Source of the DNA: Eledone cirrhosa
Lineage: Eukaryota
Direction: 5' to 3'
DNA: 64,000 nt
Assembly: GCA_964016885.1 (NCBI GenBank)
Contig: OZ024754.1
Span: 42,656,001 to 42,720,000 of the forward strand
Shown piece after piece: positions 8,234 to 63,636 of this stretch. Made by a program: the position numbers and the translations under genes. Position 1 is the stretch's first letter. The number at the start of each line of letters is the position of its first letter. The notes beneath the pieces were generated by a model. That model made no database searches and was not told the DNA's origin. It saw nothing but the letters and a program-made list of their open reading frames with translations.

Positions 8234-23140
<14,907 letters not shown>

Positions 23141-26549: not shown

Positions 26550-29500
26550 ATGGAAGGTAGGTTATTGATATTGCTCTGGAATAACTTCTGTCTTTTGTTA
26601 GGAATAATACGTGGGAATGATAATACTTTCGTTATTATTTAAATCAGGGATAAATCTATTTATATTGAAGTTTTTAAGTAGAAGTAATTTTAATATCATT
26701 CCATAAAGATTTAATTATGTAAAAATGATGAGTTTTGTTAGTTTGGAGTTTGAAAGTCTTTTAATCTTGGACATGATCTAGTTTTACAATTTTACTTGAT
26801 AATATCTAAATATTTCTTCAACATTTAACAAATATCTATATCTATATATATATTATTTACTTGTTGAATAAAATATGTTTAAACAAACTTCGACATTAAT
26901 CCCAGATATATTTAATGAACCCTAGAAAATCTAAGATTATATAACAATATAAATTCGTGTATAAAATATATCTGGTCAGTAATAACATCCAAATGTTGCT
27001 TCATTGATAAATTTCCTATCTTTGTAAATATATAATCGTTTAATATATAAAGTTTATTAATATAAGTTAATATATAATCGTTTAATATATAAAGTTTATT
27101 AATATAAGTTAATATAAATGGTTAACAATATAAAAGGTTATTATAAAAGTCTATAAATAAAAGTTTATTAATATAAAAGGTTAATAATAATATAAAAGGT
27201 TAATAATATAAAAGTTTATTAATATAGAAGTTTATTAATAATAAAGGTTAGTAATATAAAATGTTATTAATAATATAATTTATTAATATAAGATCACTGA
27301 CTAAAGCCATTTTGGGCAATGAGAGCCATGTTGGAAATTAAGAACAGTTTTTATAGTAATTCTTTATTTTTATCGTTCAAACTGTTATATTAATTTTAGT
27401 TTTAATCAAGAAATAGATCCCCAAAGTATAATTTTCTAATAAAACCAAACATTAAATAGCAATTAGTCCTATAAACTGCATCAAAATCTCTCAGTATTTT
27501 TGCAATTGGCGCGCTTCCACTCCATTGGACTCGCGTTCAGTTTCTTTCAACTAATTAACTTTTTTCTAACCATTTATATATATTTCACAATTTATTAACT
27601 ACTTTATTTAAATATTTTATTTTTATATTTATAATTATAATTCCTTTTCTTTTTTATTCTTTATTTTACCATTGGGAAATGGTTTAACACGGGGAAGAGT
27701 CAATTTAGTCATCACTCCTTCCTCTGAAATTTACATTTCATTAAATAAATATTTTGTTGGGGGTCAAATTAAGTCGATCTAAATAATAAATGTCAAGTGA
27801 ACTTAAAAGATATTGTTGCTTTCAGAGCTGTATTACTTATAAGACTTTATAAAGTACCAGTAATACACTGGGATAATTGCTGGCCTTGTGCCAAAAGTAG
27901 AAACAATTATTTATAAGACTTTATTTTATCGACCCCGTAAGGATGAAAGGCAAAGTTAACCTCGTTCAAATCCTGCCGAGGTTAACTTTGCCTTTCATCC
28001 TTACGGGGTCGATAAATGAAGTAGCAGTAATGCACTGAGGTCGATAAACTCAACATGCCCCTCTCCCTAAATTGTTGGCCTTTTGCCTATATAAGAAATC
28101 ATCATCATCATAATTATTATTATTATTAAACACAATTTGTAAATGCGAGACTTGGTCGGTCTTTTTGTGCCAGTCGTGGTCGAGACTTCTGCTGTCCTTC
28201 GTCTACCAACTGTCATTTCCCTCCGCAAAATCGAGAGCAATGTATCTCGCTTGAGGAAGAAAGGTAGCGTGGCTGATGTAGCGGGTGTCGCTGGCTGTTC
28301 TCTGCAGCAATACCCTCGCCATTTTGTTCGCAGAGTACAGCTGAGCTAAACCCACTTAGACTATGGTGTACTCCCTGCTTCTCCCTGGGATAAACCCATT
28401 TAGATTAGGGTATACTCTGCCGTTCCCTGAGATATACCACTTAGCCTAGAGTATACTCCCTGCCTTTCTCTGAGATATACCATTTAGACTAAACTACTAC
28501 CACTTAGACAGATAAACCCACTTAATGTAGGGTCTACTCTCTCTTTTCTCTTCTATTTTAAATTTTTTCTTAATATGCAAAAATTGATAAATTTCTTTCT
28601 TTTATTCTGAAATAAAATCCCTTCATTTGCTGACTTAAAATAAATTATAAAATAAAATAAAATTTAATTAAACGATAAAAAGATTAGCTTCGCCCACAGG
28701 GGGACTTGAACCCACGACCCTCAGATGACTTGTAGATGACGTCATTAAAAGTCTGATGCTCTACCGACTGAGCTATGCGGGCTAACTTACTTTCATAGGT
28801 TAATAATACTTATTGATATTTAGTTTCTAGAGGACAGAAGACTTGTACTGTGTTGTATACGAGATTCAATGGTTTTTGAACCACCGCCCCTCTCTCCTTT
28901 ATTGATCTTTGTTTTACAATGATGTTACTGTCGTTTAGTTTACATATTGAGACCCCTAATACTCGCTCTATTTATTTTATAACATATGGGATTTCTAGTA
29001 ATGGTCCCTTTTATTATTATTTTTTTTTTTTTTGTCGTGTGTAATGGTTTTTTTTTTTTTAATGTCTAAAAAAAATTAATTGTCGCAGGAATGCTACCAC
29101 TTAAAATAAAATTTCGTCGGAGATAGATCAACAAAATTTAAAAAACGGGGTCGGGTGGCGGTGGAAAAACACCTGCAAAATAAATCAGCGGTGTGTTTGG
29201 GGGTTATTAGAGACACGAAAGTAATAAATAATAAGATTAAACTAAATTTATTTATAGTTTTTAATAGCTAACTTTGTGTATAAATGTAATTTACCTCATA
29301 AACAAGCTAAGATTATATAATTTCGACTGAATTTTTTAAAAATTATATATTTTTTAGATTTTACTATGTGGGTATTTTGTGGTGTTTTTTTTTTTTTTGT
29401 TTATATATATATATAACGAAGGAGTTGTGGTATGGAACCAGATGGACCATAACGCACCAGAGTACTCAATACTTAGGGTAGTAGAGTGGGTAATAGGAGA

Positions 29501-29609
29501 AAGTATGACCCCGACGGCAGAGCTCAAGCCGTTTCGACGGCTATTCCTGGACGCCAGAAATAGCCGTCGAAACGGCTTGAGCTCTGCCGTCGGGGTCATA
29601 CTTTCTCCT

Positions 29610-29648
<39 letters not shown>

Positions 29649-32600
29649 CGGTGGTTTTTCTCATGGACCCATTAAAAACGTGAGTCTTGTAACAAATAAA
29701 TATCAACACAACTTTCCAATCGTGACCACCTCGTCTGTTAACTCCTAACACTAAACTTTAACCAACAATATCTATCATAGATAAATGAATAAGTTCTGAT
29801 TTATTGTCAACTGTTTCTAACAACCTTCGTTGTTTCTACCTGAAAAATGGAAGTATATTTACCATAGCTACGACTAAAGTTCGTTAATTAAAATATCTTG
29901 TATATATAAAGTTAAACAGTGATGATGATGATGATATAAACTGAATTTATATAATGAATATGTAAAAGATAAATCAGTAGAAATTACATTACTATATATA
30001 TACTGTTACATTACTATATATATACTATTACATTACTATATATATACTATTACATTACTCTATATATACTATTACATTACTATATATATACTATTACATT
30101 ACTATATATATACTATTACATTACTATATATATATACTATTACATTACTATATATATACTATTACATTACTATATATATACTGTTACATTACTATATATA
30201 TACTATTATATTACTATATATATACTATTATATTACTCTATATATACTATTACATTACTATATATATACTATTACATTACTATATATATACTATTACATT
30301 ACTCTATATGTATACTATTACATTACTATATATATACTATTACATTACTATATATATACTATTACATTACTCTATATGTATACTATTGAATTTTCCTGGT
30401 AAAGGCTTTACCACACTATAAATAGAAGGACTTGAATTATTTTGAATTATTATAAAATCTGTACTATACTATAACATCTGTACTATACTATAACATCTAT
30501 ACTATAATAATATTTGTACTATACTATAACATCTGTACTATACTATAACATCTGTACTATACTATAACATCTATACTATAATAATATTTGTACTATACTA
30601 TAACATCTGTACTATACTATAGTAACATCTGTACTATACTATAACATCTATTCTATACTATACTATAGTAACATCTGTACTATACTATAATATAACATCT
30701 GTACTATACTATAACGTAAATTATTATATTATAGTACAGTCTCTACTATAATATAATAATTTCCTTATTGGCCACAAGGGTCGATATATAATAACATCTA
30801 TAACTTATATGAAATCACATGCAAACTTTTTATAGTTCTCATTTCAGATATTGGTCTCTCATCAGTTCCATTTCAGTGTCTTGATGAATTTAAAGCTGAA
30901 CCACATTTAGTTCATGAAGACCAGACAGTTCCAGAATATATCGGTGAGATTCCAGTGAACAGTTCTGACAATTTTGAAGAACAAAATGGACTTTGTCACT
31001 CAAACCAGCAGAGGTTTAGTCCTATTTCTAATAACCAATTGAGGCACTTTAAAAGAAAAGTTTTCAAGAAGGTAACAACAAATATCTTGATTTTTATTTT
31101 TATTTATTAATTAATTTATTTTTGGCTGAGTGGTTAGAGAACTGGATTCACAATCATGAGGTTGTCAGTTCTATTCTTGGACCAGGTGATGTGTTATGTC
31201 CTTGAGCAAGACACTTTATTTCACGTTGCTCCTTCTACCTGGAGTTGCAACCGATAGATAGTATTTGCAATTGGAAAGACCAACGGAAACATTGTTCCCT
31301 CGGTCCGATTTGACGAAAGTGGATCAACTCCTTTCTGTTGGTTCTTAACCTTTTTGGGGACCATATTTTGAACACTTGGCACCAACCTAACCAAAGCTGC
31401 CCCTGTTTCTATGAGACTAAAACCACTCATTTTAAAGGGTTTGATTAAAAGGTGGTGAATTATCAGAATTGTTACAGGTATTAGATTAAAAATGTCTCTG
31501 TATTTATTTCGGCTTACTGCATTCTGAGTTCAAAGCATGCCGAGGGCAACCTGGCCTTAAATGCTTTTGAGGTTGATAAATAAAGTAACTGTCAAATACT
31601 GGAAGTTGATTATTCTTCTCTCTGGAGGAAATCGGCCGTGTTCTGACCTGGAAAGAAATGGACTCCATCAGGTTTAAAATATTCCTCTGACTCCATCAGA
31701 ACTTAACGGCCATTTACCAATTTAGATGAAGATCTTCGAACATGTAAGAACCATATGTTAAGTTACTATCTTGATAATGAAACGGTTTATAATTTTAGTA
31801 AATCCCTCAAAATTCTTAATTGACTGAAATATAGAGTTTTCATTACAAATATGGTAACGAAAGAGTTAATAAAATACACTGTATTTCAATTAATGAAAGA
31901 TTTTGAGGGATGTACTACATTCACCACCCATGTTTCAGCACCATGTAACAGTACACCATACACTATATTCACCACCCATGTTTCACTACCATACAATACC
32001 ACACATACACTACATTCACCATCCATGTTTCAGCACCATGTACATCACACATACACTACATTCACCATCCATGTTTCAGCACCATGTACATCACACATAC
32101 ACTACATTCACCATCCATGTACATCACACATACACTACATTCACCACCCTTGTTTCACTGCCATGTACATCACACATACACTACATTCACCATCCATGTT
32201 TCAGCACCATGTACATCACACATAAACTACATTCACCATCCATGTTTCAGCACCATGTACATCACACATACACTACATTCACCATCCATGTTTCAGCACC
32301 ATGTACATCACACATACACTACATTCACCATCCATGTTTCAGCACCATGTACATCACACATACACTACATTCACCATCCATGTTTCAGCACCATGTACAT
32401 CACACATACACTACATTCACCACCCTTGTTTCACTGCCATGTACATCACACATACACTACATTCACCACCCTTGTTTCAGCACCATGTACATCACATCAT
32501 AAAATAATTATCTCTAAACTATCTTTATGTTAAACACTTTCTCTCCCAAGACTCAGTTTTCCATAGAATAATGTAATGTTTAATAAGAATTGACAAATGT

Positions 32601-35600
32601 TTTCAATTAAAAATGGAAAACAAACTAATTTCTTTATCATAAACCACTTCCCTTTTCCCCTAGATTTTACTTATTTCTTTGTTTGAAATACTTTCAGTCT
32701 TCAAAGAAACGAAGACCTCGTGGTAATTACCCACTGCTTGAATCTCCTGTTGTCTTACATCATACACATTCAAATTGTGTTCAGTTTCAGTATTCCAAGA
32801 GAGAACAGCTACAAAAATCTTCACAGAAACTCATGCAAAAACACAGAGAAAGTGAAAGGTATTCTCATTTCTTCTCATACTATGTCATCAAACTAGGCAC
32901 ATGTCTTTAGTTTTTAGTATCAAACAAGGCATATGATTTTATCTTTTATGATCAACTAGGTACATGTCTTAAATTTTATTATAAACTAGCTATAGGTTAA
33001 AGACATAGACTGTGTCTTTCATTAGAAATATGGTAATGAAAGGGTTAATGATATAGACAGTGTCTTTCATTAGAAATATGGTAATGAAAGGGTTAAAGAC
33101 ATAGGCAGTGTCTTTCATTAGAAATATGGTAATAAAAGGGTTAAAGAGACAGACAGTGTCTTTCATTAGAAATATGGTAATGAAAGGGTTAATGACATAG
33201 ACAGTGTCTTTCATTAGAAATATGGGAATGAAAGGGTTAAAGACACAGACAGTGTCTTTCATTAGAAATATGGGAATGAAAGGGTTAATGACATAGACTG
33301 TCTTTCATTAGAAATATGGGAATGAAAGGGTTAATGACATAGACAGTGTCTTTCATTAGAAATATGGAAATGAAAGGGTTAATGACATAGTATCTTTCAT
33401 TAAATTTCATTAAATCACATACAGTTACAAAAGAATTAATATTGTTTTCCTCTCTTTCTAGAGTTCGCCACCGTACGTTAAATGAATTAATGAATAAATT
33501 ATATAAACAGATCCCTGGATATTCAAAATATTCTAAAGGAACCAAGGTTTTTAATCTGATTTTGTTCTTTCTTTCTCTAATTTTATTCTTTATTTGGAAC
33601 TTATAAAAGTACTGAAGTAATAAAGAGAAATGGGAGACATCACAGTATGTCATGAACATGTTTTGTGGTCCCTACAGATAAAATGTTACTGTAACTCCTT
33701 GAAGATGGCAAGGTACTGAAAGTGCCTGACTAGACCAAGAATATTTACTCCAAATACAAAAACTGTAATAAGATATGAAATTATGACAATCTAACCCCTT
33801 ATCCTGTACTTCAACCCTTATTATGACAATGTCACCCTTTATCCTGTACTTCAACCCTTATTATGATAATGTCATCCCTTATCCTAGACTTCAACCCTTA
33901 TTATGACAATGTCACCCCTTATCCTGTACTTCAACCCTTATTATGACAGTGTCACCCCTTATCCTGTACTTCAAGTCTTTTAATGATAAACTGCCATTAG
34001 TTTTATAACATGAAACCCTATAATTTTAACCCTTTAGCATTTAAACCGGCCACATCTGGCCAGAATTCTCTCATCTCTGTCTGCTTAAACTGGTTGGAAC
34101 TGGCCACTCATACTGATGTTAAGATATTGTTCTCAAAATAAATATCAAAATCTCATAGATTTGATATTATTTGAGATAATTATGTAAGATAAAGCCTTTA
34201 CCACAAAAATACAATAGTAGACATAGAAGAATGTAAATGCTAAAGGGTTAAAGTGTTCATATCCAAATTCAAACTTATTTTAATTCTATGTAAGAAACTT
34301 GTAATGGGTCATGTTCTGAACTCTAGCTTAATCAATTAAAAGATGGTTTATTTTACTGAATCCTTCCTAATTTGAAACACATGTAGTCTAACCCATACTA
34401 GCGTGGAAGGTGGATGTTAAATGGCGATGATGATGATGTAGTATATTTTATGTTCATGGGAGAAATAGTGTCATAGAAGAGATAATCTCAGTTATTCTTG
34501 AAAACTTTTTATATAACCAAACCAAACATATTTCCTGTTTATGATGCTTTTCATTTTAAATATTGAATTAATTTTAGGTAGTGACGATGCAACGAGCGAT
34601 TTGCTATATTGTATATCTGGAGAAGATGATCAGTCAAGTTTGTAAAGAACTTAAAGTAACGATGGACATAACCAAAATGTTCCTAACTGTCAGACTCAGT
34701 AGAGAAGGTTAGTTAACCAAAATATTCCTAACTTAACACATTTCTTCAACTCACGTGTAGATGAATGAAAGTGACTGGGTGAGAGGAGTGATAGGAAGGA
34801 AGTAGAGGAAGTGGAAGACCAAGAAAGATATGGCTGAAGATGATGGATGAGGAGAGGAAATGAAAGCCAGTGGGTTGGTGAGTAGAGTGCAGATGGTAGT
34901 AGGACAAAATAGAGAAGTTTGTCATGGGGTCTGCACGACTAACCCCTGCTTTGTCAGGAAAACCCTTATTATTGTTGTATATCTTGTATCTAGTAGCTTG
35001 CAAATGCTGTTCTTTGACAACTTCAAATTGTTTAATTGCAGATTTAAAAAGAGCCTTGTGGGGTTATGACCCATATGAACAGTGGAAGAATCAATGTTCA
35101 ACTTTTGATGTGGTAAGATTTTTAAAGTCTTGAAAATAATGTTTTCTTACACTGGCACAGGTTGATATATTTCTAGAAGAGGGTTACTGTTGCTTGAATG
35201 TTGAGCTCTTTAAGTACTTAAAAGATTATGGTGTCCCTCATGTCATCGTGTTCTTATAGAAACAAGAATTATATATAAAACACCCAGTCCACACTGTAAA
35301 GTGGTCGTGTAAATGACACGGCAAAAAGCACACAGTGTAAATGTGGTTGGTGTTAGGCAGGGCATCCGGCTGTAGAAACCAAGCCAAATCAGTTCTGTGT
35401 GAGCAAATCATGGTCCCCCGACTTGATCCCTCACAAAGGGACAGCCTGTCCTATCCAAGCTAGCGTGGACAATTGACGTTAAATGATGATGATATATGTA
35501 AAATTCTGACCGTGGCAAAAAGGCTTGCTGAACACAAGCTGAAACCACTTGGCACCGCAGTCGGGATTTTATATCTCTATATCCACTCTACATCTCCCCA

Positions 35601-38600
35601 TGTATTGAGTACTCCCATGATTAGTGGTGTCCCTGGTCCCAGCACTGCAGAATCTTTCTCTCTCTCTCACGGAGGAGATGACGAAGGACCGTGATAAGTG
35701 GAGAGATGCTGTGCTGAATAAGACCCGTCCCACCCTTGCAAGCAGGGAAAAGCGGATGTAAAATGATGATGATGATGATATCACAGAGAGTACCTTTGAA
35801 AAATGGTTGGATTTTGCTACATATGACTGGCAGAATATTGACCATTGCTCAGGTCGGAAAGTAACTATAAATAGATGAAATTCTTAATGAAGGCATATTC
35901 AGTTGACAATGAGCTTCAAGTCTTTTGTGAGCTGAATTCCTGTCAGTATTTTAAAAGATTGCTATTGTGGTCTTATTTTTCAATGTTTTCCATATTTTCA
36001 CCAGCAGATTTGATTTGTGTGGGGTTGGCAGAGTTGTGAGGATTTCAGATTAACCCCTTAGCATTTAAACCGGCCGTATCCGGCCAGAATTCTGTTCAAA
36101 TTGACTGTATCTAGCCATTCATACTGATGTGAAGGTATTGTTCTGAAATAAATAATATCAAAATCTCATAGATTCAATATTATGTGAGATATATGCGATA
36201 AAGCCTTTACTGTGAAAATACAATAGTATATATAGAGTAATGTAAATGGTATGTGAGATATTATGTGAGGTAAAGCCTTTACTGTGAAATACAATAGTAT
36301 ATATAGAGTAATGTAAATGGTATGTGAGATATTATGTGAGGTAAAGCCTTTACTGTGACAATACAATAGTATATATAGAGTAATGTAAATGCTAAAGGGT
36401 TAAATATCTTGGTATATGTTCCAGCTTTCTGCACTCTGAATTAAAACTTCACCTCAGAGGCCCACTTTGCCTTTAATCTTTTTTGGGGGTTGATAAAGTA
36501 TCATCCAAGACGTGGTGGGTTCACAGAATTGTTAAAGAGTCAAGCAGGCTAATTTGCAATATCCTATCTATCTCTGTACATTCTCAGTTCAAATCCCGCC
36601 TTTTCCTGCCAGAAGTTGCAACTGGCAGATCATTTCTTTGGTCCAATCTGACAATCAGCTTCTTATAGCCTATTTTTTGCATTATTTCAAGGCTCCATAT
36701 ATAGAGGGTATTTCAAATGAAGTTGTGACAGCTTGTTCCACAGTGATCGACACGGAAGGGAGCCAGTTTTCTCCAGATCTTAACATTACTTGTGAAACTA
36801 ATGATGACAATTCAGTAAATATTTATCTTCCCAATAATGGATTGATTGTAGACACCTACACCTTTAGTATAGTCACTCCAACCTCTGAAGCAGGTTAGTA
36901 TTAACCCTTTTGATACCAATCTGCCCTGTCTTTGGTTCTATGAAATAAGACCACCCATTTTAAAGGGTTCCTATATAAATTTAAATCTTTCAATATAATT
37001 TGATATAAGAGTCTCGATAAGTTATGTTACAAATGTCACCTTAATAATTAGATACCGTATTTCCCTGCATTGAAATTGCTACTTTTTTCCTAAAATAAGT
37101 CCCCAAAATCAACCATGCGTCCTGGAGGCCAAAGGTTTATTATTATTTTTTTCCAAATTTTTGGCCTCAAGGACAAATCGTCTCTGGCGCCGGGGAATAC
37201 GGTGACTAATAATTTTAGTAAATCCCTCCAAATTCTTCATTAATTAATTCAGGTACATTTTATTCCATTAGAAATGTGGTTAGGAAAGGGTTAACCCTAT
37301 CATTACTGTATTTCTAATAAAAGATACTGAGTTTCAAATCATTTTGAAAATAATGAAAAATTTGAAGGGATTTAGTAAAATAACTAACTTTCTCAGTATT
37401 TAGTTAGTGTTTGTAACCTTTGCTAGGTTCTTGCTTCAGTCTTTTAGAAGGAAACACCAGAATTCCCTGTTGTAATTCAATGTGCACATCTCCCATTTCT
37501 TTTCTTTTCTTTTTTTTTTCCTCTAATTAATTTCATTGTTTATTATGTAAATCATATTCTATAAATTGTGTTTATACTAACGCTATCTGTTCAGCTACTG
37601 TAACTAGTCTAATACTTAACTCTTTAGCATTTAAACTGGCTGTATCTGGCCAGAATCCTCTCACCTCTTTCTCTTTAAACTGGCCATAACCAATTGCTCA
37701 TACTTATATTAACCTTTTAGCATTTAAACTGGCCATATCCGGCCAGAATTTCTCACCGCTTTCTGTTCAAACCAGTTGTAATCGGCCACTTATACTGACG
37801 TTAAGGTATTGTTCTCAAAATAAATAACATCAAAATTTCATAGATTCAATATTATGTGAGATAAAACCTTTACTATGAAAATACAATAGTATACAGAGAG
37901 TAATATGAATGCTAAAGGGTTAAGGTATTGTTCTCAAAATAGATAACATCAAAATCTCATAGATTCGATATTATGAAATAATTATGTGTTACCATGAAAA
38001 TACAATAGTAAATATAGAGTAATGTAAATGCTAAAGGGTTAAATATATTTTCCATTTTCTGTAGAATTTCCAAATCCAGAACTAAATTCAGAGGAACCAA
38101 AAATGTTTTCTGGTGATCCTACAGTAAGTTTTGGGGGTTTTTTTAACATCTATGTGTAGTATTGTATATAATTGTCATGTAGGGAAGGTACATGGTTTAG
38201 CATTTAAACCGACTGTATCCGGCCAGAATTCTCTCACTTCTTTCTGTTCAAACCAGCCATAACTGGCCACTCATACTGATGTTACCGTATTGTTCTCAAA
38301 ATAAATAATATCAAAATCTCATAGATTCAATATTATGCGAGATAAAGCCTTTTCTGTGAAAATATAATAGTATATATAGTCATGTAAATGTTAAAGGGTT
38401 AAACATTTCATTACCAAAATACACTGATAACATGCTTCATTTAACTTCAAAAATAATAAGTTTGAGGAATTTAGTAAGGTAACTTTTTTATTCCTAAACT
38501 GGGGTTTATATCATATCATCATCATCATCAACATTTAACTTAATAAACGTATGGTAACGAAGGGGTTAATTATATTTCTTACAAAATTTTCAGTTGGTGA

Positions 38601-41600
38601 GCTCTCCTGCTGGTGAGGTAGTAACAGTTACAGAAACACCATGTTTGATATCGGAATTAAAACATCCAGCACTTCTTACAGGTGATCCAATGCTGCCCCA
38701 GGTAACTTTTCTTTTTTATATAATAATAGTTGTTTCTAGTTTGGGGAGGGGAAAGTCGATTAAATCACTCCCAGTGCATTACTGGTACTTTATTTTATCG
38801 ATCCCATAAGGATAAAAGACAAAGTTAACCTCGGCGGGATTTGAACTCAGAACATAAAGGGATGTACCTATATGCCCCAAAGCATAGTGTTCGTGGCTCT
38901 ACCAATACTGCTAATCCACCGTCTTTTTTTTATAATAATAATGAAAATTATTGTGTACAGTGCTCGGGTGCACTACAACTCATCAAAGGTGCATGTATAG
39001 TACATAGTATAATGTAGAAATGTCAGGAAAGTGAACAGTATATGAGTCATGATATACATACAGACACACACACACACATATGGGTGCCTGTGTATGGAGG
39101 GGGAATATCAGGTGTAGTGATGGTGAATTTCAGGAAACATGGAACTTTTGAGGGATGCAGTGTCCTGACAGCTAACAACTTATTATCAATGTTTTTAGAA
39201 TAATTTCTTTAATATTGTATTTTTGTGGTTTAATTAATTAATTGGGTTTTTTTTAATTGTAACTTTATTTTTTAAAACTAGTGTTTTATATTGTTTAGGC
39301 AGGCATGGTTGTGTGGTTAAGGGATTTGGTTGGGAACCAGATTATAAAACTGTTCTTGTCGATTCTATAATAGATAAATTTTATTTTTACGAACTGAATT
39401 GTGGTCTAGCTTCTGAAACAATTGTAAACCAATAAATATATTTGTTCAAGAATTTGGTACTGTATTCTATAACAATGTATATATATATCATTCATCATTT
39501 TTCATCATTTCACTTTACGTCCACTTTTTCCCTGCTTGCAAAGGTGGGACGGGAATTGATTCTGGCTTGATTTCTACAGCTGGATGCCCTTCCTAACACC
39601 AACCTCATTTACAGTGAGTGCTGGGTGCTTTTTTGCCGTGGCGCCTACACGTCCACTTTGCAGTGGAATGATATGGACCCCAGTCCTTATCATCTCATTT
39701 CTACAGCTGAGTTAACTGGAGCAATGTGAAATAAAGTGTCTTGCTCAAGGAAACAACACATCACCCGGTCTGAGAATTGAACTCACAACCTTTCGATTGC
39801 AAGGCCAATGCTCTAACCACTAAGCCATGTGCCTATATATGTGTGTGTGTGTGTTTTTAGTGACTGGTCTGCGCAGACCCATTCAACCCTTGTTAGCAGG
39901 ACAAGTGGATAGTAACTGAAAATGATGATGTATATATGACAGACATTTACTAAGTCGACATCTGCCAAATTTCACTCAAGATATATAGTAAAGAACACTT
40001 TACATTTTCTGAATAAATTTCATCTGTAACTTTATTTTCTAGATGCAGATCTTTGAAAATTTTAAAGGAGTTCAAGGAGAAGATTTAAAGTTTGAAGCCC
40101 CTGAAGTATCTGGAGAGGAGCTGAAGTTTGTCTATTCCCCTGCCACAGTATCTTCTCCAGTCACTTATATGAAAGTCACTAGACAACCATCCATTGTTTC
40201 AAACCCTAGTGATTTGTCATACAAAGACACCAATCAACCAACTAAGCTTTCAAACCTCAGAGACCAGTTATGCCAAGTCACTAGACAACCAACTAAGTTT
40301 TCAAGTCCCAGAGAGCAGTTGTACGAAGTCACTAGGCAACCATCCATGCTTTCAAACCCCAGAGACCAGTCATGCGAAGTTACTAAACCTACTATGCTTT
40401 CAAACCCCAGAGATCAGTCCTACGAAGTTACTAGACCTACTATACTTTCAAACCCCAGAGACCAGTCCTACGAAGTTACTAGACCTACTATGCTTTCAAA
40501 CCCCAGAGACCAGTCCTACGAAGTTACTAGACCTACTATACTTTCAAACCCCAGAGATCAGTCCTACGAAGTTACTAGACCTACTATGCTTTCAAACCCC
40601 AGAGACCAGTCCTACGAAGTTACTAGACCTACTATGCTTTCAAACCCCAGAGATCAGTCCTACGAAGGTACCCAACAACATACTATGCTTTCAAACCCCA
40701 AAGATTTGTCATACAAAATCACTAAACAGCCATCCAAGCTATCAGACTCCCGAAATTTATCCTACAAAATCACCAAACAACCGGTCATATTAAGTCCTAA
40801 TGATCTGTTGTTCAAAGAGACAGCATTAGTAAACCCTGCAAACTGTGATTACCCAGATAAATCTACACCAGATGACTGTGGCCAGCCACTCAAGTACCGC
40901 TTACAGAGGCAGTTAAGGAGCGCCATTGGGAAAAAAGGTGAATTTTCATTAAATAGGGTGTTTTTTTTCCTTTCTCAGTCGAGCCATTTGAAATGTGCAG
41001 GGATATTATACAATCTCATCTCTTTTCTTCTACTACCATCATCTCCCTTCCCTTTTCTTGCTTCTGGCTTCTTAACAGACAAGACAACTCCTCTAGTCAT
41101 TGATGCCACTATAAAATGCACTTAGTACACTTTGGTGTTAGGGAAGGCATCCAATTGTAGAAACGATTTTGTTACCAACCCGGCCAAAACAGGCTCTGGT
41201 TCTATGAAATAAAGTCGCCCATTTCCAAGGTTTCCAATTTATATTAAAATCTTCCAACATAATTTTATAGAAGAACCTTACATTAAGTTACTATCCTACC
41301 ATCCCAGCCAAAACCAGCTCTGCTTTTATGAAATAAAGTTACTATCTTAGTAAATCCCTCAAAATACTTTGTTAATTAATTAAAATAATAGTGTATTTCA
41401 GTAGATATGCAGTAATGAAAAGGTTAATTTAATTTTTGTTATAAATTCTTCCAGATGACGACCAGTTTGAATCATATGAGTGGAAGTTCCATCAAGTGGC
41501 CAATATACGGCGCCAAAAGATGGATAGAAGATCTTGTGATAAGAAATTACCTGTTACAGTTGAGCAACCATTTGAGATACAGGAAAGGTTTGATCCTATT

Positions 41601-44600
41601 TCCTTTATAGTTTACTATTTTATTCTTTTGCTGTTGGTGATCTATACAAGAAATGCTCCCACTACACTCTGTAAAGTGATTTTTTCTATTTTTACAGTAA
41701 AATAAAGACAGATAAGAATGAATGTAGACCGAAAATAGACCACAGGCGTGTTTCTTGGATGAATGGGTTTATGATGTTCAGTCAGATGAATAGGAGAACA
41801 TTTATTAAGTAAGTTAATTGTTTCTACTTTTTGGCACAAGGCCAGCAATTACCCAGTGCATTACTGGTACTTTATTTTATCGACCCCGTAAGGATGAAAG
41901 GCAAAGTCAACCTCGGCGGGATTTGAACTCAGATCGTAAAGGGACGTAACTATGCTGGAAAGCATGGCGTCCGACCCTCTACCGATACTGCCAACCCACC
42001 GCCTTTATTAAGTTAGTTAACCCACCTTGATTTATCTTATTGATCTGAGATTTGGTCTTGTAAAGTATTGATTAATATTCCCCTTTGTCAAATTGTGTGA
42101 GGGTATGGAGGGGAGGGTCTTGCTTGAGAAGAAAGGATACCTGTGAGGTGGAAGGGCTGATATAGCAACTATCATTGGTTGTTCTGGACTTGTCACCATG
42201 GTGGGGGTGGCTGATGTAGTGGCTATCAATGGTTCTGAACCTGTCACCATGGTGGGAAGCTGTGGAGAGGTCTTGCCTGAGAAGAAAGGATCCCATTGTA
42301 GCAGCTATCATTGGTTGTTCTGGATCTGATACCATGGTGGGGAGCAGGGTAGTGGTGACAGTAGCTGGCACTCACTCCCATCCATACTTTTCAATGGTGC
42401 ACCTGCAGATATTTAGAATAAATTACAGCGATGTGCTTACTCCAAAACTCTGCCTTGGAATTATTGCAAGTTCTAGGGCTCACCCAGAATGTTCTGAAGT
42501 CTCACCAAAGCCTGGCGCTAAGTCTGGGCTATTCCCTGTGTCGCAATGTTTCCACCATCTTGACCACTGATGAGTCAGCTGAAATATAATCACCCTCACC
42601 AAAAACATAGAAATTCTCCCTACTATTTACTTTCTTTTCTTTGTTTTTTGTTTTTGTCATCTGTTAAATGTATTAGTTACACTGTTGTTTTGTTAATGTT
42701 AAATACCTGGGGTATTTTTTTTTCATTGTTTAATCTTTAGAAGATTATCTAATTTACAATGATTGTTAATCATGAAATTATAATACTTTGTTTTAACCCT
42801 TTAGTATTTACATTACTCTATATATACTATTGTATTTTCACAGTAAAGTTTTTATCTCTATAATATCGAAGATTTTGATATTATTTATTTTGAGAACATA
42901 AGTATGAGTGGCCAGTTATGGCCGGTTTGAGCAGAAAGAGATGAAAGAATTCTGGCCAGATATGGCTGGTTAAAATGCTAAAGGGTTAAATAACAGAAAC
43001 TTCTAACTGCAGTGTTTCTTGTCGAAGTGGATCTGTTTTCAGAACTTATATATTTTTTATAACAAATATGTTGCAGTTTTGAACTTACAAATTATGTTTA
43101 AATATATATATGAAGGATCCGGTACCCCAACAGCTGAGCTACTGTGGTTTCAACAGTTATTTCCAAACAGTTTGGAAATAACTGTTGAAACAGCAGGAGT
43201 TCAGCTTCAGCCGTCAGGGTCCTGAATCCTTCATATTACCACATTCTACTACCCCAAGTATCAAATACTCTGGTGAGTAATGGTCTACGTGGAAAATGGA
43301 CGTTAAACGAAGATGATGATGATTATCTATTATTAAAGCTGTTACACTGCCAATTTTGTCATGACCTCACTGTGATAATAGTTATAATTTGATATCTTCC
43401 AGTGCTAACCCTGGTTTTCACACATCTCACATTAGTAAAATGATGGGACATACTTGGAGGAATATGCCTGAAGATAAACAAAGACCTTACAAGTAAGTCT
43501 TTTTCATTTACCATATATGCCAGTGTACAAGTCGACTTTTGGAGCCTAAAAATATCTTTCCAAAACCAGGGGTCGACTTGTCTGCCAAATATAAAATGTG
43601 AACCTTTACCACTGAGGGGTAAACAGTGAAACTGCCTAACACTCGTTGTACACCACTTACCATAACTCTAGCCGTCCACTACAATTATTTCCTACTGAAT
43701 CTCATATTTGTTAAGTTTATTTAACGTAGAGATTATAATAATATCAATGACTTGCTGTAGCTCATAGGGTAGGTTAGCATAGCTTCGTTAAGGTTAGGCT
43801 AGGCTGGTTTACCCAGTGAGTTAGAACTGGCTTACAACTGAAGTGTTTTAGGAAGAAGTGTCTCTTAGCCTTTTGTGCAAATAAAGAATGGCAAGCACAT
43901 CTAGGGCTGGGGAGATGGTACTGCCTTATGTGGGGGGAGGGGGGTCCTCTTATCTGGCGAATATAAGCCTAAATCTGAATTACACCTCAGAATTTTAGGG
44001 GTTGATCTATGTGCCAGATCGACTTGTATGCTGGCATATGCGGTAATGTTCGCCCCAATAATATATTATGTATAAATTAGCAAAAATAAAGGAGGCAGTG
44101 AATTGTCAAAGTTGAAACAACATAGAATACCTTGCAGCATTTGTTTCTACTCTCTATACTCTGTTAAGATCCCATCGGGTCAGTTTTATCTTTTATTCTT
44201 TCCAGGGTTGATTATAAAAGTACCAGTTTAATACTGGGGGGTTGATTCTTCCTCTATATCTCTGACGTAAAATGGTGAAGTAGATGATGAGTATTTATTT
44301 GTTATTTATTTAATGTTATTTCCAGGGAGAAGGCTCAAAAATATGCACAAAACATGCAAGATGCTCTTCTCATGAACATTCCGGAATCATTTGAAAGTCT
44401 TCCCACAGCTGATGCTGAACAACATAGCTCAGATAAAGACCTTAACTTTACCAATACAGCATATATTGAACAACATAGCTCAGATAAGGACCTTAACTTT
44501 ACCAATACAGCAGATATTGAACATAGCTCAGATAAGGACCTTAACTTTACCAATATAATATATATTGAAGAACATAGCTCAGATAAGGACCTTAACTTTA

Positions 44601-45682
44601 CCAATACAGCAGATATTGAACATAGCTCAGATAAGGACCTTAACTTTACCAATACAACAGTTATTGAACATAGCTCAGATAAGGACCTTAACTTTACCAA
44701 TCCAATAGTTATTGAACATAGCTCAGATAAGGACCTTAACTTTACCAATCCAATAGTTATTGAACATAGCTCAGATAAGGACCTTAACTTTACCAATCCA
44801 ATAGTTATTGAACATAGCTCAGATAAGGACCTTAACTTTACCAATACAGCAGATATTGAACATAGCTCAGATAAGGACCTTAACTTTACCAATATAACAT
44901 ATATTGAAGAACATAGCTCAGATAAGGACCTTAACTTTACCAATACAATAGTTATTGAAGATAGCTCAGATAAGGACCTTAACTTTACCAATACAGCAGA
45001 TATTGAACATAGCTCAGATAAGGACCTTAACTTTACCAATCCAATAGTTATTGAACATAGCTCAGATAAGGACCTTAACTTTACCAATCCAATAGTTATT
45101 GAACATAGCTCAGATAAGGACCTTAACTTTACCAATCCAATAGTTATTGAACATAGCTCAGATAAGGACCTTAACTTTACCAATCCAATAGTTATTGAAC
45201 ATAGCTCAGATAAGGACCTTAACTTTACCAATCCAATAGTTATTGAACATAGCTCAGATAAGGACCTTAACTTTACCAATCCAATAGTTATTGAACATAG
45301 CTCAGATAAGGACCTTAACTTTACCAATACAGCAGATATTGAACATAGCTCAGATAAGGACCTTAACTTTACCAATATAACATATATTGAAGAACATAGC
45401 TCAGATAAGGACCTTAACTTTACCAATATAACATATATTGAAGAACATAGCTCAGATAAGGACCTTAACTTTACCAATACAATAGTTATTGAAGATAGCT
45501 CAGATAAGGACCTTAACTTTACCAATACAGCAGATATTGAACATAGCTCAGATAAGGACCTTAACTTTACCAATAGAGCAGATATTGAACATAGCTCAGA
45601 TAAGGACCTTAACTTTACCAATACAATAGTTATTGAGCAACATAGACCAAATAGTGACCTTAACTTTACCAATACAGAATGA
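26550..45682 (+). CDS. bHLH + HMG-box transcription factor, MEIOSIN/BHMG1-like (14 exons, about 1210 aa)
   Basis: Exons 26550-26556, 30848-31071, 32698-32858, 33462-33546, 34578-34707, 35042-35112, 36692-36893, 38065-38123, 38594-38701, 40043-40937, 41455-41587, 41698-41808, 43403-43492, 44326-45682. All GT-AG with consistent phases; total 3633 nt. bHLH: HRESERVRHRTLNELMNKLYKQIP..KGTKVVTMQRAICYIVYLE. HMG box: WMNGFMMFSQMNRRTFINANPGFHTSHISKMMGHTWRNMPEDKQRPYKEKA. The 7-nt first coding exon (ATGGAAG|gtaggt) is the least certain part. Confidence 0.85.
28691..28782 (-). tRNA. tRNA-Lys(UUU) with a 19-nt intron (28727-28745)
   Basis: Minus strand reads GCCCGCATAGCTCAGTCGGTAGAGCATCAGACTTTTA[ATGACGTCATCTACAAGTC]ATCTGAGGGTCGTGGGTTCAAGTCCCCCTGTGGGCG. 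It gives a 73-nt cloverleaf after removing the intron at 37/38. A and B boxes are intact and a T5 terminator lies a few nt downstream. One T-stem mismatch (U50:C64). Confidence 0.92.
29494..29610. repeat. 117-bp near-perfect inverted repeat (foldback element) with TA at both ends
   Basis: 57-bp arms with one mismatch and a 3-nt loop (acg). Confidence 0.9.
29983..30720. repeat. Two adjacent AT-rich minisatellites (22-24-bp and about 19-bp units)
   Basis: Unit ttacattactatatatatacta (29983-30388) matches the MITE subterminal sequence; unit catctgtactatactataa spans about 30458-30715. Confidence 0.85.
31123..31320 (+). mobile_element. CORE-type SINE variant, second copy
   Basis: Near-identical to 12134-12330. 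Confidence 0.75.
31912..32497. repeat. 46-bp minisatellite
   Basis: Unit tacactacattcaccatccatgtttcagcaccatgtacatcacaca. Confidence 0.9.
32994..33402. repeat. 48-bp minisatellite containing an AAAGGGTTAA MITE-like terminus
   Basis: Unit gacagtgtctttcattagaaatatggtaatgaaagggttaatgacata. Confidence 0.88.
33780..33974. repeat. 40-bp minisatellite, about 5 copies
   Basis: Unit ttatgacaatgtcaccccttatcctgtacttcaaccctta. Confidence 0.85.
34030..34247. mobile_element. piggyBac-type MITE
   Basis: Same TIRs and TTAA flanks as 5439-5685. Confidence 0.82.
34750..34975 (+). mobile_element. RTE-like LINE 3' fragment
   Basis: Encodes GSRGSGRPRKIWLK, the RTE C-terminal GRP..W motif. A similar decayed remnant lies at about 25330-25600. 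Confidence 0.55.
36054..36399. mobile_element. piggyBac-type MITE with an internal tandem triplication
   Basis: Same TIRs and TTAA flanks. An internal segment of about 67 bp is repeated three times. Confidence 0.8.
37620..38038. mobile_element. Nested pair of piggyBac-type MITEs (inner copy 37713-37919)
   Basis: The inner copy sits in the outer copy's internal TTAA, which appears at both 37709-37712 and 37920-37923. Confidence 0.8.
39510..39833 (-). mobile_element. CORE-type SINE family B
   Basis: Near-identical to 21955-22276. Confidence 0.85.
40170..40790 (+). repeat. Coding tandem repeat (51-54-bp unit) in exon 10 of the bHLH-HMG gene
   Basis: Encodes TRPT(M/I)LSNPRDQSYEV: about 6 near-perfect copies with degenerate flanking copies. 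Confidence 0.88.
41815..42003 (-). mobile_element. SINE family A
   Basis: Full-length copy directly after the exon-12 donor of the bHLH-HMG gene. Other copies or fragments lie near 16757-16920, 21065-21168, 38726-38922, 50058-50182, 61245-61437 and 63959-64000. Confidence 0.85.
42797..42985. mobile_element. piggyBac-type MITE
   Basis: Same TIRs and TTAA flanks. More copies near 17903-18250, 38197-38398, 50216-50600 and 55628-55830. Confidence 0.8.
43108..43236. repeat. Degenerate foldback element related to 29494-29610
   Basis: atatgaaggat..gtttcaacagttatttccaaac|ag|tttggaaataactgttgaaac..atccttcatat. Confidence 0.7.
43509..44045. mobile_element. Non-autonomous Tc1/mariner (pogo/Tc2-like) DNA element
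   Basis: TA|CCATATATGCCAGTGTACAAGTCGA ... TCGACTTGTATGCTGGCATATGCGG|TA: imperfect TIRs, TA flanks and subterminal AGGGGTCGACTT motifs. A similar small element lies at about 37054-37203. Confidence 0.7.
44405..45679 (+). repeat. Coding tandem repeat (48/51-bp unit, about 26 copies) forming the C-terminus of the bHLH-HMG protein
   Basis: Encodes IEHSSDKDLNFTN(TAD/PIV/ITY..). Confidence 0.92.
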
Positions 45683-47302
45683 CCATAGGTCAATTTTCTG
45701 TAGATTATCAATATGATTTATTTAACCATAGTCAAATGTGTTAGTTAAAAGTTATAAAGGAATTATTGAAATCTAAATTTATAAAAATGAAAGACCAAAA
45801 AAAAAAAAAAAAATTCTGTTATTTAGGAAATTAAACTGACTGAAATTTCCAATTTTGTTTTGTTTTTTTTTTCATTTATTTTATTTATTATAGTTCTAGA
45901 GTTTAGCTTTGCCTTTCATCCTTACAAGGTTAATAAAATAAAGTACCAGTAATGCACTGAGGTCAATTTAATTGACTTTTTCCTCTCCCAAAAATTGTTC
46001 TTGTGCCTGAATCAGAAACCATATTTCAAAATGTTTAAAACTTATAGATAACGAAAATGATTGTGAAAGGTTTAAACCTTTTATTATATTTCAAATGAAA
46101 GGCACTATTTGAATTAATTCATGTAGAATTTTGAGGGATTTACTAAATTTATTATTTCATTATTAAGAAACTATGTGCATTTAGTTTAGAACAGAAAACT
46201 CTAACTTTAATTTACTATAAATTTTCACAAGTCTCTCTTAGTAAAAATACTATAAACATATGAATTAACCAATTTTTTTAGATATTTACTGCAATCAGTA
46301 TTAATACTTCATATACTCCTGGGTCCCAAATAATGAGGGGGGAGTCAGTCATTTTTCTAGGTCGTCTCTATTGGTGTGTTTTTAAAAACCAGAATTAGTT
46401 GTTTAGTTTACACATAGACTCCCAACCCATCCTATTTGTTTCATAACGTATGATATTTTTGGTAATGTACTTTTGTTGTCATGTATCATGTTTTTTTAAT
46501 ATATAAAGAAAATGAGCAAAATTTGATAAGTGAAGGGGAGACAATTATTTGAGAGTACTGTTTATGTCCTGGTTTTTAGAATTGGTACAGCATATCCCTG
46601 CATAACATCAGGAAGAGCATCTAGTTGTAAAACAGATTCAAAAGGCTCTCTCCAACCCATGTCATGGAAAAGCAGGCATGAAAACAAAAATGAGAATGAT
46701 GATATAAGTAATTTTATCATCCTCTCATAATTTTGAAAATAACCATTCTTGATTATTTAAAAAATTATATGAAAATTATAGGCAGTGTCTTTTATTATAA
46801 ATATCATTAAAAAAGGGTTAAATATAAGCCAGAAAAGATTGTGATCCTAAACTTTGTCACAAGAGATATGTGCCAAGGGTTAAATAAATGTGAAAAAGAA
46901 AGCTCTAGAAGGCAAACGTGTTTAAGGTTAATACGATTATTTTTTTAATTTAAACACTTTTAAGCTTTTGTTTATTTTAGTTTCAATATTTATAACACAT
47001 ATTACAAATGAATCTGAAGTACTTCTAAGCAAATAAATAGAGTTTATAGTTGATTAAAATATAAATACATGTTTTAAAAAATGTATGTAAGAGGAGTAAA
47101 AAGGGTGACATACCCATTGTTAGTTTGAAATTCAATGAACATATTTTCACAAAGACTACAAAAACAAAGCCCAACATTAAAATAATAATCTTAGATCTAT
47201 TGTAATGATTTACATTTCGTTTGTAATTCTTTTCTGTTAAGAAAAACAAGATCCTTCTTGAATTCTGTTAGTTTTTAAGCTTCCCTCTTTGTATATTTCT
47301 TT

Positions 47303-47929
47303 TCAAAGCAAATGTGGGGCAAAATACTTGACAAATGGGTTGTTTTTATCTTCTCCAAAAATAAAATCTAGCCATGCATTTACATATTCATCCTGGCTCA
47401 TTTTACCAACGTGATTTTTCACCATACATTCAAAAACTTTCTGAATTGTCTCCTTGTTATCATATCCGAAACAAGCCAAACCCTTTTCAAGTTCCTCGCA
47501 TGTTATAAAGCCATCTTTGTCAAAGTCAAATATTTGAAAAAATAAAGTGACAGCTGACTTAAGACTGTTCCGAGCTATAAGGGGGTCGGCTGTCATAAGC
47601 TGTCCAAGGGCACCAATATATTCATCCTCAGAGATTTTGGCACCGTTTTTAATGGCTTCTGCCATTTGTGCTACCATTGGCATAATGTCACCACTATGTT
47701 CACTGTCAACTTTTTTAAACCCATCAACAAGCCATCCATAAATTTCTTTTGCTCTTTCATCATCTAAGTTATATTGCACAGCAAAGCGATTAGCAATCAG
47801 TTCAAAGTCTTCTTTAGCCATGAATCCATCTTTTGTGGTATCCATCATTTTAAACCAAACTCTTATTTTTTCCTTCACAAAATCAGAAAAATGAATGTTA
47901 TCAGTTGAAATTTCTTCTATATGTGACAT
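47303..47929 (-). CDS. Sarcoplasmic calcium-binding protein (SCP)/calexcitin-family EF-hand protein, 208 aa, uninterrupted CDS
   Basis: First ATG at 47929 (MSHIEEIST). EF loops DTTKDGFMAKED and DFDKDGFITCEE are canonical; EF2 and EF4 are degenerate. N-terminal SDFVKEKIRVWF and C-terminal AWLDFIFGED..F.P.L fit the invertebrate SCP pattern. Confidence 0.85.
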   Translation of the reverse strand: MSHIEEISTDNIHFSDFVKEKIRVWFKMMDTTKDGFMAKEDFELIANRFAVQYNLDDERAKEIYGWLVDGFKKVDSEHSGDIMPMVAQMAEAIKNGAKISEDEYIGALGQLMTADPLIARNSLKSAVTLFFQIFDFDKDGFITCEELEKGLACFGYDNKETIQKVFECMVKNHVGKMSQDEYVNAWLDFIFGEDKNNPFVKYFAPHLL

Positions 47930-47959
47930 GATGTGAAAGTAGTTAGCACTGGAGAGGGA

Positions 47960-48130
47960 GAGATAGATATAGAGTGTTGTTACCACTGGACAGAGAAATA
48001 GATGTAGTGGGTGTTGTTACCACTGGACAGAGAAATAGATGTAGAGTGTGTTGTTACCACTGGACAGAGAAATAGATGTAGTGGGTGTTGTTACCACTGG
48101 ACACAGAGAAACAGTGTAGAGTGTGTTGTA
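47960..48130. repeat. 37-39-bp minisatellite upstream of the SCP-like CDS
   Basis: Unit gtgttgttaccactggacagagaaatagatgtagtgg. Confidence 0.8.
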
Positions 48131-63215: not shown

Positions 63216-63636
63216 TTAATGATAATTCTCTTTTTCAAATACTAATTTGACAGCTTCTAAAACATTTTGGGTAACATAAGTTGGTTTCTTCAGTTCACTA
63301 TCAAGTACAAAGTCTCGGTGATTGTGGTTTGAGATTTCTTTTCCTCCGTACGTTACAAAATCACTATCAGTCGTATAGACTCCTGTACAGACTAATATAG
63401 ACACAGATTTATCAGTAAGAATAATACTTTCATCTGTCCCTGGTGACATCAAATCTACTACTGTATCATCCTCAGTGTCCAGATCATCAGCACTGGATAC
63501 GTCTGAGTTGAGACTAGAATTACTTGTGTTGGCTAACTGTTGAAGCTTCTTCGCTTGTTGCCTTTGTTTTGCAGATCGTGAATGCAAATATCGGTTGTAT
63601 AGATTCCCTCCATATATGTCAGTCTCTGGATTATCT
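63216..63636 (-). CDS. HDHD5: HAD-like hydrolase domain-containing 5 (CECR5), terminal exon only; gene continues beyond the window
   Basis: Acceptor ttgtag| then (G)DNPETDIYGGNLYNRYL...SILVCTGVY...NHNHRDF...NVLEAVKLVFEKE*. This is HAD class IIA motif IV (GDN..TDI.G) plus the HDHD5-type HRD tail. Confidence 0.88.

Follow-up and report, generated by a model that had tools for sequence, protein, structure and literature searches.

A bHLH-HMG gene of the octopod Eledone cirrhosa: a member of the LtcHLH/BHMG1 family and likely orthologue or pro-orthologue of vertebrate MEIOSIN

The window analysed here, a stretch of 64,000 nucleotides of Eledone cirrhosa (assembly GCA_964016885.1, contig OZ024754.1, positions 42,656,001 to 42,720,000), holds at 26550..45682 of its forward strand a single-copy, spliced gene in which a bHLH domain is joined to an HMG box, and which by homology is the octopod member of the LtcHLH/CgBHMG1 family. 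As an explanation of the whole, we lean slightly towards an octopod LtcHLH/BHMG1 gene that is a likely orthologue or pro-orthologue of vertebrate MEIOSIN and acts as an activator of meiotic genes. Whether the MEIOSIN-STRA8 pair is ancestral has been asked by Shimada et al. 2026 (PMC13637641), who dealt with vertebrates only and called for more distant species; the text and 10 supplements of that article contain no invertebrate terms.

The 14 joined exons amount to 3,633 nt and encode 1,210 amino acids without internal stop, with GT..AG borders at 13/13 introns. The features of the gene, with identities to the O. sinensis protein LOC118765447, are as follows:

26550..45682, + strand: complete coding region, 14 exons and 1,210 aa, of the bHLH-HMG gene (LtcHLH/BHMG1, MEIOSIN-like) (spliced frame, GT..AG introns, O. 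sinensis alignment)
26550..26556, + strand: exon 1, start codon, 7 nt (first 2 residues as in O. sinensis)
30848..31071, + strand: exon 2 (53/75 identical)
32698..32858, + strand: exon 3, ends in bHLH basic region, with His126 and Glu130, the intron splitting Arg131 (45/52 identical; domain map)
33462..33546, + strand: exon 4, helix 1 and loop, phase 0 end after helix-2 Thr-Lys (28/29 identical; 4/5 junction in RNA run X5)
34578..34707, + strand: exon 5, helix 2 and following helix (38/43 identical; 4/5 junction in X5; 1 genome match)
35042..35112, + strand: exon 6 (18/24 identical)
36692..36893, + strand: exon 7 (acceptor picked for its frame, its pyrimidine tract and the fit to homologues, while others would keep the frame too; donor confirmed in X5)
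38065..38123, + strand: exon 8 (both junctions in X5)
38594..38701, + strand: exon 9 (both junctions in X5)
40043..40937, + strand: exon 10, linker with repeat array (both junctions in X5)
40196..40830, + strand: coding array in exon 10, 13 units of 48 or 51 bp, Ser/Thr/Pro-rich (repeat analysis, octopod comparison)
41455..41587, + strand: exon 11, motif common to bivalve homologues (10/11 junction in X5; homology)
41698..41808, + strand: exon 12, HMG helix 1, domain start 41756 (32/37 identical; 1 genome match)
43403..43492, + strand: exon 13, HMG helix 2 and start of helix 3 (27/30 identical; Pfam HMG_box E 1e-06)
44326..45682, + strand: exon 14, end of HMG helix 3, acidic tail, stop (O. sinensis alignment; outside X5 coverage)
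44423..45682, + strand: acidic (net -64) coding array in exon 14 of 26 units, whose 25 complete spacings each measure 48 or 51 bp (repeat analysis)

A sequence-only reading of this DNA had proposed the same 14-exon gene, with the bHLH in exons 3-5 and the HMG box in exons 12-14, and the model stood: both domains lie in one open frame, and LOC118765447 (601 aa) is a single protein aligning with all 14 exons in order. Pfam HLH and HMG_box both score above cut-offs in 3/3 octopod homologues. When 12 exons of the window were scanned one by one, HMG_box was matched by exon 13 only and HLH by none, so that the two domains, split over small exons, are hidden in the ORF track, as had been remarked. 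The motifs quoted in that reading are present, the basic one being split by the exon 3/4 intron within Arg131, and the vertebrate HMG motif that it cited agrees with MEIOSIN sequences. Contigs of run X5, which is taken as RNA from its spliced contigs (depth 2-5), carry the junctions 4/5, 7/8, 8/9, 9/10 and 10/11, five of the ten within the two stretches compared; junctions 1/2 to 3/4 lie outside these stretches, those of exons 6 and 12-14 are absent among the matches listed, which at this depth does not speak against them, and no single contig spans both domains. Exons 5 and 12 each match the genome once. A word-index search with bHLH queries returned three octopod proteins only. An Argonauta database record is already named BHMG1, and LOC118765447 is absent from the O. 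sinensis gonad paper and its supplement.

The sequence-only reading missed two in-frame arrays of 48/51-bp units which make up about half of the E. cirrhosa protein. These coding arrays, which double its length, are new here; that of exon 10 has grown from a single native unit, which other octopods also have, and that of exon 14, found at this locus only, from the native C-terminal 16 codons. Pfam matches in the exon 14 array, TssR among them, were discarded as repeat artefacts. The long Ser/Thr-rich and acidic arrays might provide a disordered linker or an activation surface. Apart from these expansions, the octopod gene is an ordinary family member.

The LtcHLH family was described by Bao, Xu and Shimeld 2017 (PMC5381572), and the oyster gene CgBHMG1 (LOC105327228) is attributed to Yue et al. 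2021 where PMC12111275 cites it; elsewhere CgBHMG1 is termed 'a factor involved in meiosis' (PMC8945556). BHMG1 had been published from a mollusc before, so that of the candidate meiotic initiator outside vertebrates claimed from the letters the kinship held and the novelty did not. With LtcHLH accessions matched against the Bao 2017 supplement, the bHLH of the window forms a clade with the oyster, Lottia, Lingula and Capitella members (support 100/91), and a profile of the four members named by Bao scores it at 82.9 bits, the runner-up among the bHLHs of the same genome reaching 29.7.

From sequence comparison, the E. cirrhosa gene is very probably an orthologue or pro-orthologue of vertebrate MEIOSIN. 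With a profile of 88 vertebrate MEIOSIN HMG boxes, 45 spiralian rows including the window score 43-59 bits and the other HMG boxes compared at most 39.8; within its own genome the window reaches 54.6 bits versus 27.7 for the next of 24 HMG matches, 13 of the 37 other matches there being left unscored. In the HMG tree, the invertebrate bHLH-HMG family and MEIOSIN form a clade supported by 90/90 (77 in a first tree made by quick search only). The MEIOSIN clade reaches 99/98, and 96/97 under a mixture model, when the long-branch ambulacrarians and Priapulus are left out, a removal decided after the first HMG trees had been seen. The outgroup labels (SoxB, CIC, SOHLH-like and others) are our assumption, based on motifs. 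In the ESM Atlas the first cluster after the protein's own bears the name 'meiosis initiator protein' (score 0.90, over 192 features). Used as whole-genome queries, a platypus MEIOSIN fragment or a Saccoglossus protein missed the small exons of the window and gave Sox/BBX-like or spurious matches. The kinship with MEIOSIN put forward earlier is thus backed by a reciprocal best HMG match and a 90/90 clade, whereas AU tests, on alignments of 62-71 columns, rejected 0/6 alternative groupings (p 0.098-0.33). It also counts against this kinship that ambulacrarian HMG boxes, once spiralians are taken out, group with MEIOSIN in only 21/300 trees. Among these, the forced union of spiralian and Sox HMG boxes was 14-19 log units worse, yet not rejected (p 0.098 and 0.187). 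Membership in Sox itself was discarded: the signature is missing and the best trees place the box with MEIOSIN. The mollusc origin and non-Sox box of the earlier reading agree with homology and trees.

The bHLH trees recover the same clade, with weak support (92/75, 92/64 and 87/69, with 7 redundant or long rows removed from one of them) and place the window among group A genes, not with the PAS-type. A vertebrate-only MEIOSIN bHLH profile ranks it 10th of 31, or 13th of 42 with added outgroups, below SCL-like and achaete-scute-like genes (11 of 57 HLH matches not scored). A phase-0 intron after the helix-2 Thr-Lys is apparently common to E. cirrhosa and vertebrate MEIOSIN: the exact break occurs in 5/81 vertebrate gene models, positions being read from gene-model breaks rather than genomic DNA and one regex artefact removed, and in 0/43 other bHLH matches of the same genome. 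Four introns interrupt the two domains, in Arg131, after Lys159, in Asn729 and in Lys759; that of Arg131 is not diagnostic, because it is shared with an E-protein-like gene.

Regarding function, the E. cirrhosa protein is likely, by analogy, a testis-enriched transcription factor that turns on genes of germ cells and of meiotic prophase, no STRA8 having been detected; granted orthology, a role as activator of meiotic genes is fairly probable. This germ-line role is proposed by extension from mouse, zebrafish and oyster, and is probably not exclusive to germ cells. The intact His-x3-Glu-Arg-x-Arg basic region would read an E-box-like site, and the bHLH would dimerise with itself or with another bHLH, such as an E protein or SOHLH. 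The Asn and Phe-Met wedge of HMG boxes serve in minor-groove binding and bending; since both are kept, aligned with SOX2, the box is predicted to bind and bend DNA in the minor groove. In oysters, the orthologue of C. gigas reaches 44-63 in mature testis, 1.1-1.9 in ovary and 4-10 in resting gonad, and that of C. sikamea 36-60 in males and 1.9-3.6 in females, i.e. a testis-over-ovary bias of about 35-fold and 16-fold, respectively; the oyster gene falls in the same cluster as PRDM9 and is low at all embryo stages. The strong mature-testis signal is as compatible with later stages of spermatogenesis as it is with entry into meiosis.

Ubiquitous or somatic expression had been named beforehand as evidence against a meiotic role, and the oyster data go part of the way there: oyster LtcHLH is detected in 9/9 tissues and in the Bao table is highest in haemocytes (27.4 FPKM versus 5.1 in male gonad, the testis marker SOHLH2 standing there at 0.17 and 77), and it is testis-biased in the data given above. 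The gene might accordingly be a MEIOSIN orthologue broadly used in molluscs, in haemocytes and later spermatogenesis, with meiotic entry a task taken on in vertebrates, along with STRA8 and the erosion of the basic region. This account, which we hold unlikely on the whole, draws on that spread over tissues, on low levels in mature oyster ovary, on intact invertebrate and eroded vertebrate basic regions, which imply different DNA targets, and on the fertility of zebrafish males lacking meiosin (PMC13637641). It has to face the testis bias in both oysters; moreover, a mature ovary holds arrested oocytes, in which an entry factor would be expected to be low, and a preprint which lists Meiosin in sea anemones reports its loss in sexless ones, if its orthology is taken as given.

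As to the partner, PF23175 (bHLH_STRA8) gave no match over the cut-off in the E. cirrhosa genome (best E 2.4), where a gene of small exons could be missed, and none at E 0.1 in three octopod homologues or in a set of 31 proteins scanned. An ESM feature score for STRA8 of 0.77 is a lead only, and STRA8 entered none of the trees. Zebrafish and hagfish have MEIOSIN and no STRA8, and mouse and zebrafish MEIOSIN are active partly or wholly without it (PMC13637641).

Among the matches listed, homologues are found in molluscs, annelids, a brachiopod, a nemertean, a priapulid, echinoderms and a hemichordate, and bHLH and HMG box stand in one protein in molluscs, Owenia, Lingula, Priapulus, five echinoderm classes and Saccoglossus; amphioxus, cnidarians, arthropods and fish are missing from the best 120 of 346 HMG-profile matches, a mammal-rich set, which is not evidence of absence. 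Five basic-region residues are invariant in 30 invertebrate proteins, and in vertebrate MEIOSIN (a mostly mammalian set) His is absent from 75/75 rows and Glu kept in 7/75. The two-domain protein seems to go back to the bilaterian ancestor, together with a basic region of intact E-box type which mammals have eroded, a view which is new here. An improbable variant would have two ancient paralogues, the spiralian gene on the MEIOSIN side and that of echinoderms and hemichordates separate, possibly on the STRA8 side, rather than simple one-to-one or pro-orthology. It takes up a conflict between domains: the HMG box joins spiralians to vertebrates in 353/500 trees and the bHLH joins them to ambulacrarians in 488-492/500, and ambulacrarian HMG boxes share 13-15/58 residues with the window versus 20-21/58 for vertebrate MEIOSIN. 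Rate differences, however, account for this conflict; no species was found with both types, a Saccoglossus query revealed no second gene in E. cirrhosa (a weak test for small exons), the ambulacrarian proteins lack a bHLH_STRA8 match, and the break in one sea-urchin isoform falls on the codon of the exon 13/14 junction. Very improbable is a convergence in which a lophotrochozoan bHLH (for Bao 2017 a duplicate of cranky/NPAS4) acquired a Sox-like HMG box by a separate fusion, for although AU tests do not reject the Sox grouping or bHLH with cranky-like (p 0.22), bHLH profiles do not single out MEIOSIN and the nearest solved structures are SOX HMG boxes (no MEIOSIN chain being listed), both domains point to the same clade and stand in the same order, with an apparently shared intron and reciprocal HMG scores, deuterostome invertebrates and a priapulid have the family, and its bHLH is of group A.

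With descent shared with MEIOSIN as the preferred reading, the bHLH-HMG family is the outgroup called for in PMC13637641. Its presence in protostomes and ambulacrarians implies that the two-domain layout likely predates vertebrates, supports a secondary loss of the bHLH in hagfish and zebrafish, and shows the bHLH kept where no STRA8 is detected; three separate names, LtcHLH, CgBHMG1 and MEIOSIN, are tied together. One may tentatively go further and picture a bilaterian ancestor with one homodimeric bHLH-HMG meiotic switch, its DNA-reading basic region intact and its bHLH ancestral rather than a later addition, of which MEIOSIN and STRA8 would be split descendants and with which, undivided, octopods and oysters would still start meiosis. 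The question can now be put to the test in an oyster, a sea urchin or an annelid, and it also concerns the sterility of triploid oysters.

Compared with known systems, the E. cirrhosa HMG box resembles Sox in its helix-1 wedge and helix-2 start, and differs from Sox, TCF, BBX and CIC in lacking the Sox signature, in its two introns, in the bHLH of the same protein and in its place in trees; several family records are nevertheless auto-named 'Sex-determining region Y protein' or Sox-17-like. The linkage of LtcHLH to cranky is not kept, the exon which we take to be cranky-like lying on C6 and the bHLH-HMG gene on C14. The box of oyster CgBHMG1 is 39/58 identical, and the E. cirrhosa protein is twice as long because of its repeats. 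LtcHLH is lophotrochozoan-only in PMC5381572, whose main text leaves the HMG box unmentioned, whereas the present comparison adds a priapulid, echinoderms, a hemichordate and, probably, vertebrates. STRA8 has a similar layout of bHLH and HMG-like domain (PMC13637641), but its bHLH_STRA8 domain found no match in the homologues scanned. Finally, vertebrate MEIOSIN/BHMG1 differs in its eroded basic region (mostly mammalian set), intact in E. cirrhosa, in that the oyster orthologue is not germ-cell restricted and in that E. cirrhosa gave no STRA8 match, and is alike in its N-terminal bHLH, its C-terminal HMG box and its place in the same clade of both trees, with weak support for the bHLH.

The gene joining a bHLH to an HMG box was rebuilt on the plus strand (26550-45682) as 14 exons of 3,633 nt in all, encoding 1,210 aa with a single stop at the end, and its 13 introns are all GT..AG. 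A query with exon 5 recovered three octopod proteins with 88-91% identity, the one from Argonauta already carrying the name 'basic helix-loop-helix and HMG box domain-containing 1-1'; the three homologues pass the Pfam cut-offs for HLH and HMG_box, and the O. sinensis protein aligns collinearly with all 14 exons. Exons 5 and 12 have one genome match each. Contigs of X5, an RNA run recognised by its spliced contigs, join exons 4/5, 7/8, 8/9, 9/10 and 10/11, that is, five of the ten junctions in the stretches examined. Since no X5 contig was found to span both the bHLH and the HMG box, the single transcript is argued from the open frame and from the homologues' gene models. The splice-consistent 14-exon gene proposed by the sequence-only reading is real and adds a member to a family already known. 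The features of the protein and of its surroundings are the following:

Protein residues 125-174, bHLH
Protein residues 712-770, HMG box
2975-3280, plus strand, exon of an FAD-dependent oxidoreductase (Pfam DAO), presumably similar to L-2-hydroxyglutarate dehydrogenase
9332-11959, minus strand, exons encoding translation initiation factor IF-2 (Pfam IF-2 at 10262-10546), probably the mitochondrial form
28691-28782, minus strand, tRNA gene in intron 1 (Rfam, 58.3 bits)
47303-48016, minus strand, EF-hand protein encoded by a single exon (237-aa frame), presumably like sarcoplasmic calcium-binding protein, in convergent orientation to the bHLH-HMG gene
63216-63659, minus strand, 147-aa frame with no Pfam match, presumably like the terminal part of a HAD-family hydrolase, for example HDHD5

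The protein contains two repeat arrays, with 13 units in exon 10 and 26 in exon 14, and without them would measure about 617 aa, similar to its relatives. All spacings are 48 or 51 bp, while spacings not divisible by three are present in seven of eight non-coding control arrays. Each array has expanded from one native 16-codon segment, single-copy in other octopods, and the exon 14 unit matches at its own locus only (one candidate region scored). The predicted C-terminal tail is acidic (net -64); X5 contigs do not cover exon 14. The opposite strand of the exon 14 array is open as well (44335-45717, minus, 460 codons), probably a by-product of the stop-free unit.

As regards the neighbourhood, the IF-2 gene is oriented away from the bHLH-HMG gene and the two may have a common upstream region. 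The intron-1 tRNA reads TTT (Lys-type) in its anticodon and carries 19 inserted bases behind position 37, where tRNA introns usually sit. Elsewhere there are 40 or more copies like it, many in tandem on C2, and it is either an intron-bearing tRNA-Lys or a tRNA-derived repeat. Intronic high-copy repeats (38720-38860, 39500-39800, 41820-42010 and 42790-43000), heavily covered by X5 contigs and by DNA as well, are likely transcribed mobile elements.

A HMMER search of 1.84 billion representatives, with names looked up for 30 of 150 matches, recovered two-domain proteins from bivalves, gastropods, Owenia, Lingula, Priapulus, five echinoderm classes and Saccoglossus, single-domain models from Capitella and Tubulanus, and the newt and platypus 'meiosis initiator protein'. 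Among the matches listed (120 of 346), an HMG-profile search added a chiton and 86 further vertebrate rows, of which almost all are mammalian. The members from oyster, Lottia, Lingula and Capitella make up the LtcHLH family of Bao et al. 2017 (PMC5381572), who described it as lophotrochozoan-only and whose main text does not mention an HMG box. A profile of these four members gave 82.9 bits for the window bHLH, 35-56 for ambulacrarian bHLHs and 29.7 for the next own-genome bHLH. Automatic annotation has labelled some database members (P0017, P0008, P0013, P0186) as Sox-17-like or as 'Sex-determining region Y protein', which may inflate mollusc Sox counts.

The gene is very probably an orthologue or pro-orthologue of MEIOSIN, as judged from sequence comparison. 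With a vertebrate-only HMG profile, 45 spiralian rows outrank every other HMG box compared, and the window scores 54.6 bits, or 36.7 when cut to the first 45 residues; the highest of 24 matches from its own genome, among them several partial exons, reaches 27.7. The HMG tree joins the invertebrate family with MEIOSIN at 90/90, and at 99/98 (mixture model, 96/97) once long branches are removed, which was decided when the first trees had been seen; bHLH trees join them at 92/75, 92/64 and 87/69. The 'meiosis initiator protein' cluster ranks next behind the mollusc cluster in the ESM Atlas. The window has a phase-0 intron directly behind the helix-2 Thr-Lys, exactly where 5 of 81 vertebrate gene models read through, skip or shift; of 43 other bHLH matches in its own genome, none breaks there. 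On the other side, AU tests (62-71 columns) rejected none of six alternative groupings, with the vertebrate bHLH profile the window came 10th among 31 and 13th among 42, several ordinary group A genes outrank MEIOSIN in the reverse profile, and the Arg131 intron is also present in an E-protein-like gene. Ambulacrarian and Priapulus HMG boxes fall below some Sox boxes with the vertebrate-only profile, and the ambulacrarian ones, without the spiralian bridge, joined MEIOSIN in only 21 of 300 trees.

Of the proposed meiotic initiator outside vertebrates, the gene stands as a likely MEIOSIN orthologue, and the headline itself is partly in print already. The oyster gene LOC105327228 is labelled BHMG1, citing Yue, Li and Yu 2021, Gene 790:145692 (PMC12111275), and oyster BHMG1 is reported to take part in meiosis and to be misexpressed in the gonads of triploids (PMC8945556); Meiosin is listed among genes lost in deep-sea anemones (bioRxiv 2025.09.17.676462), and a vertebrates-only MEIOSIN study calls for more distant species (PMC13637641). 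The available parts of PMC11202624, PMC12722230, PMC12000136, PMC11879061 and PMC10267585 add nothing on this gene. Neither an equation of LtcHLH with MEIOSIN nor a bilaterian-wide tree was found in the openly searchable literature, the name CgBHMG1, subscription journals and preprint supplements lying outside its reach. The gene is valuable as an outgroup for the open question of the origin of the MEIOSIN-STRA8 switch.

As to expression, LOC105327228 stands at 44-63 in the testis and 1.1-1.9 in the ovary when these are mature, and at 4-10 in resting gonad, with the same testis bias in C. sikamea; it is detected in nine of nine tissues (PMC12111275). Haemocytes rank highest in the organ table of Bao et al. 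(27.4 FPKM; male gonad 5.1, others 1.5-4.8; PMC5381572), where the SOHLH2 values rule out testis contamination of the haemocyte sample. The oyster gene is therefore testis-enriched at maturity, yet not restricted to germ cells. A role of the window gene as meiotic initiator is about as likely as not.

The search for a STRA8-like partner gave no match above cut-off in the E. cirrhosa genome, where small exons can be missed. Candidate bHLH partners would be the protein itself, an E protein, or the following gene, whose label we assume from its motif:

G000:C19:339245-339700, SOHLH-like germ-line bHLH gene of two exons (L084, L090), candidate partner

By the general bHLH code, which we take to apply to the invertebrate basic region, an E-box-like site should be readable, and the invertebrate protein may read it through its intact basic region, while the mammalian bHLH would have turned mainly into a STRA8-binding surface. 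This latter role is the one given to mammalian MEIOSIN in PMC13637641, whose mouse motifs are not E-boxes. Unlike vertebrate MEIOSIN, where the His occurs in none, the Glu in 7 and the second Arg in 4 of 75 rows scored, the invertebrate proteins keep the five basic-region residues (His, Glu, Arg, Arg, His), invariant in the 30 aligned.
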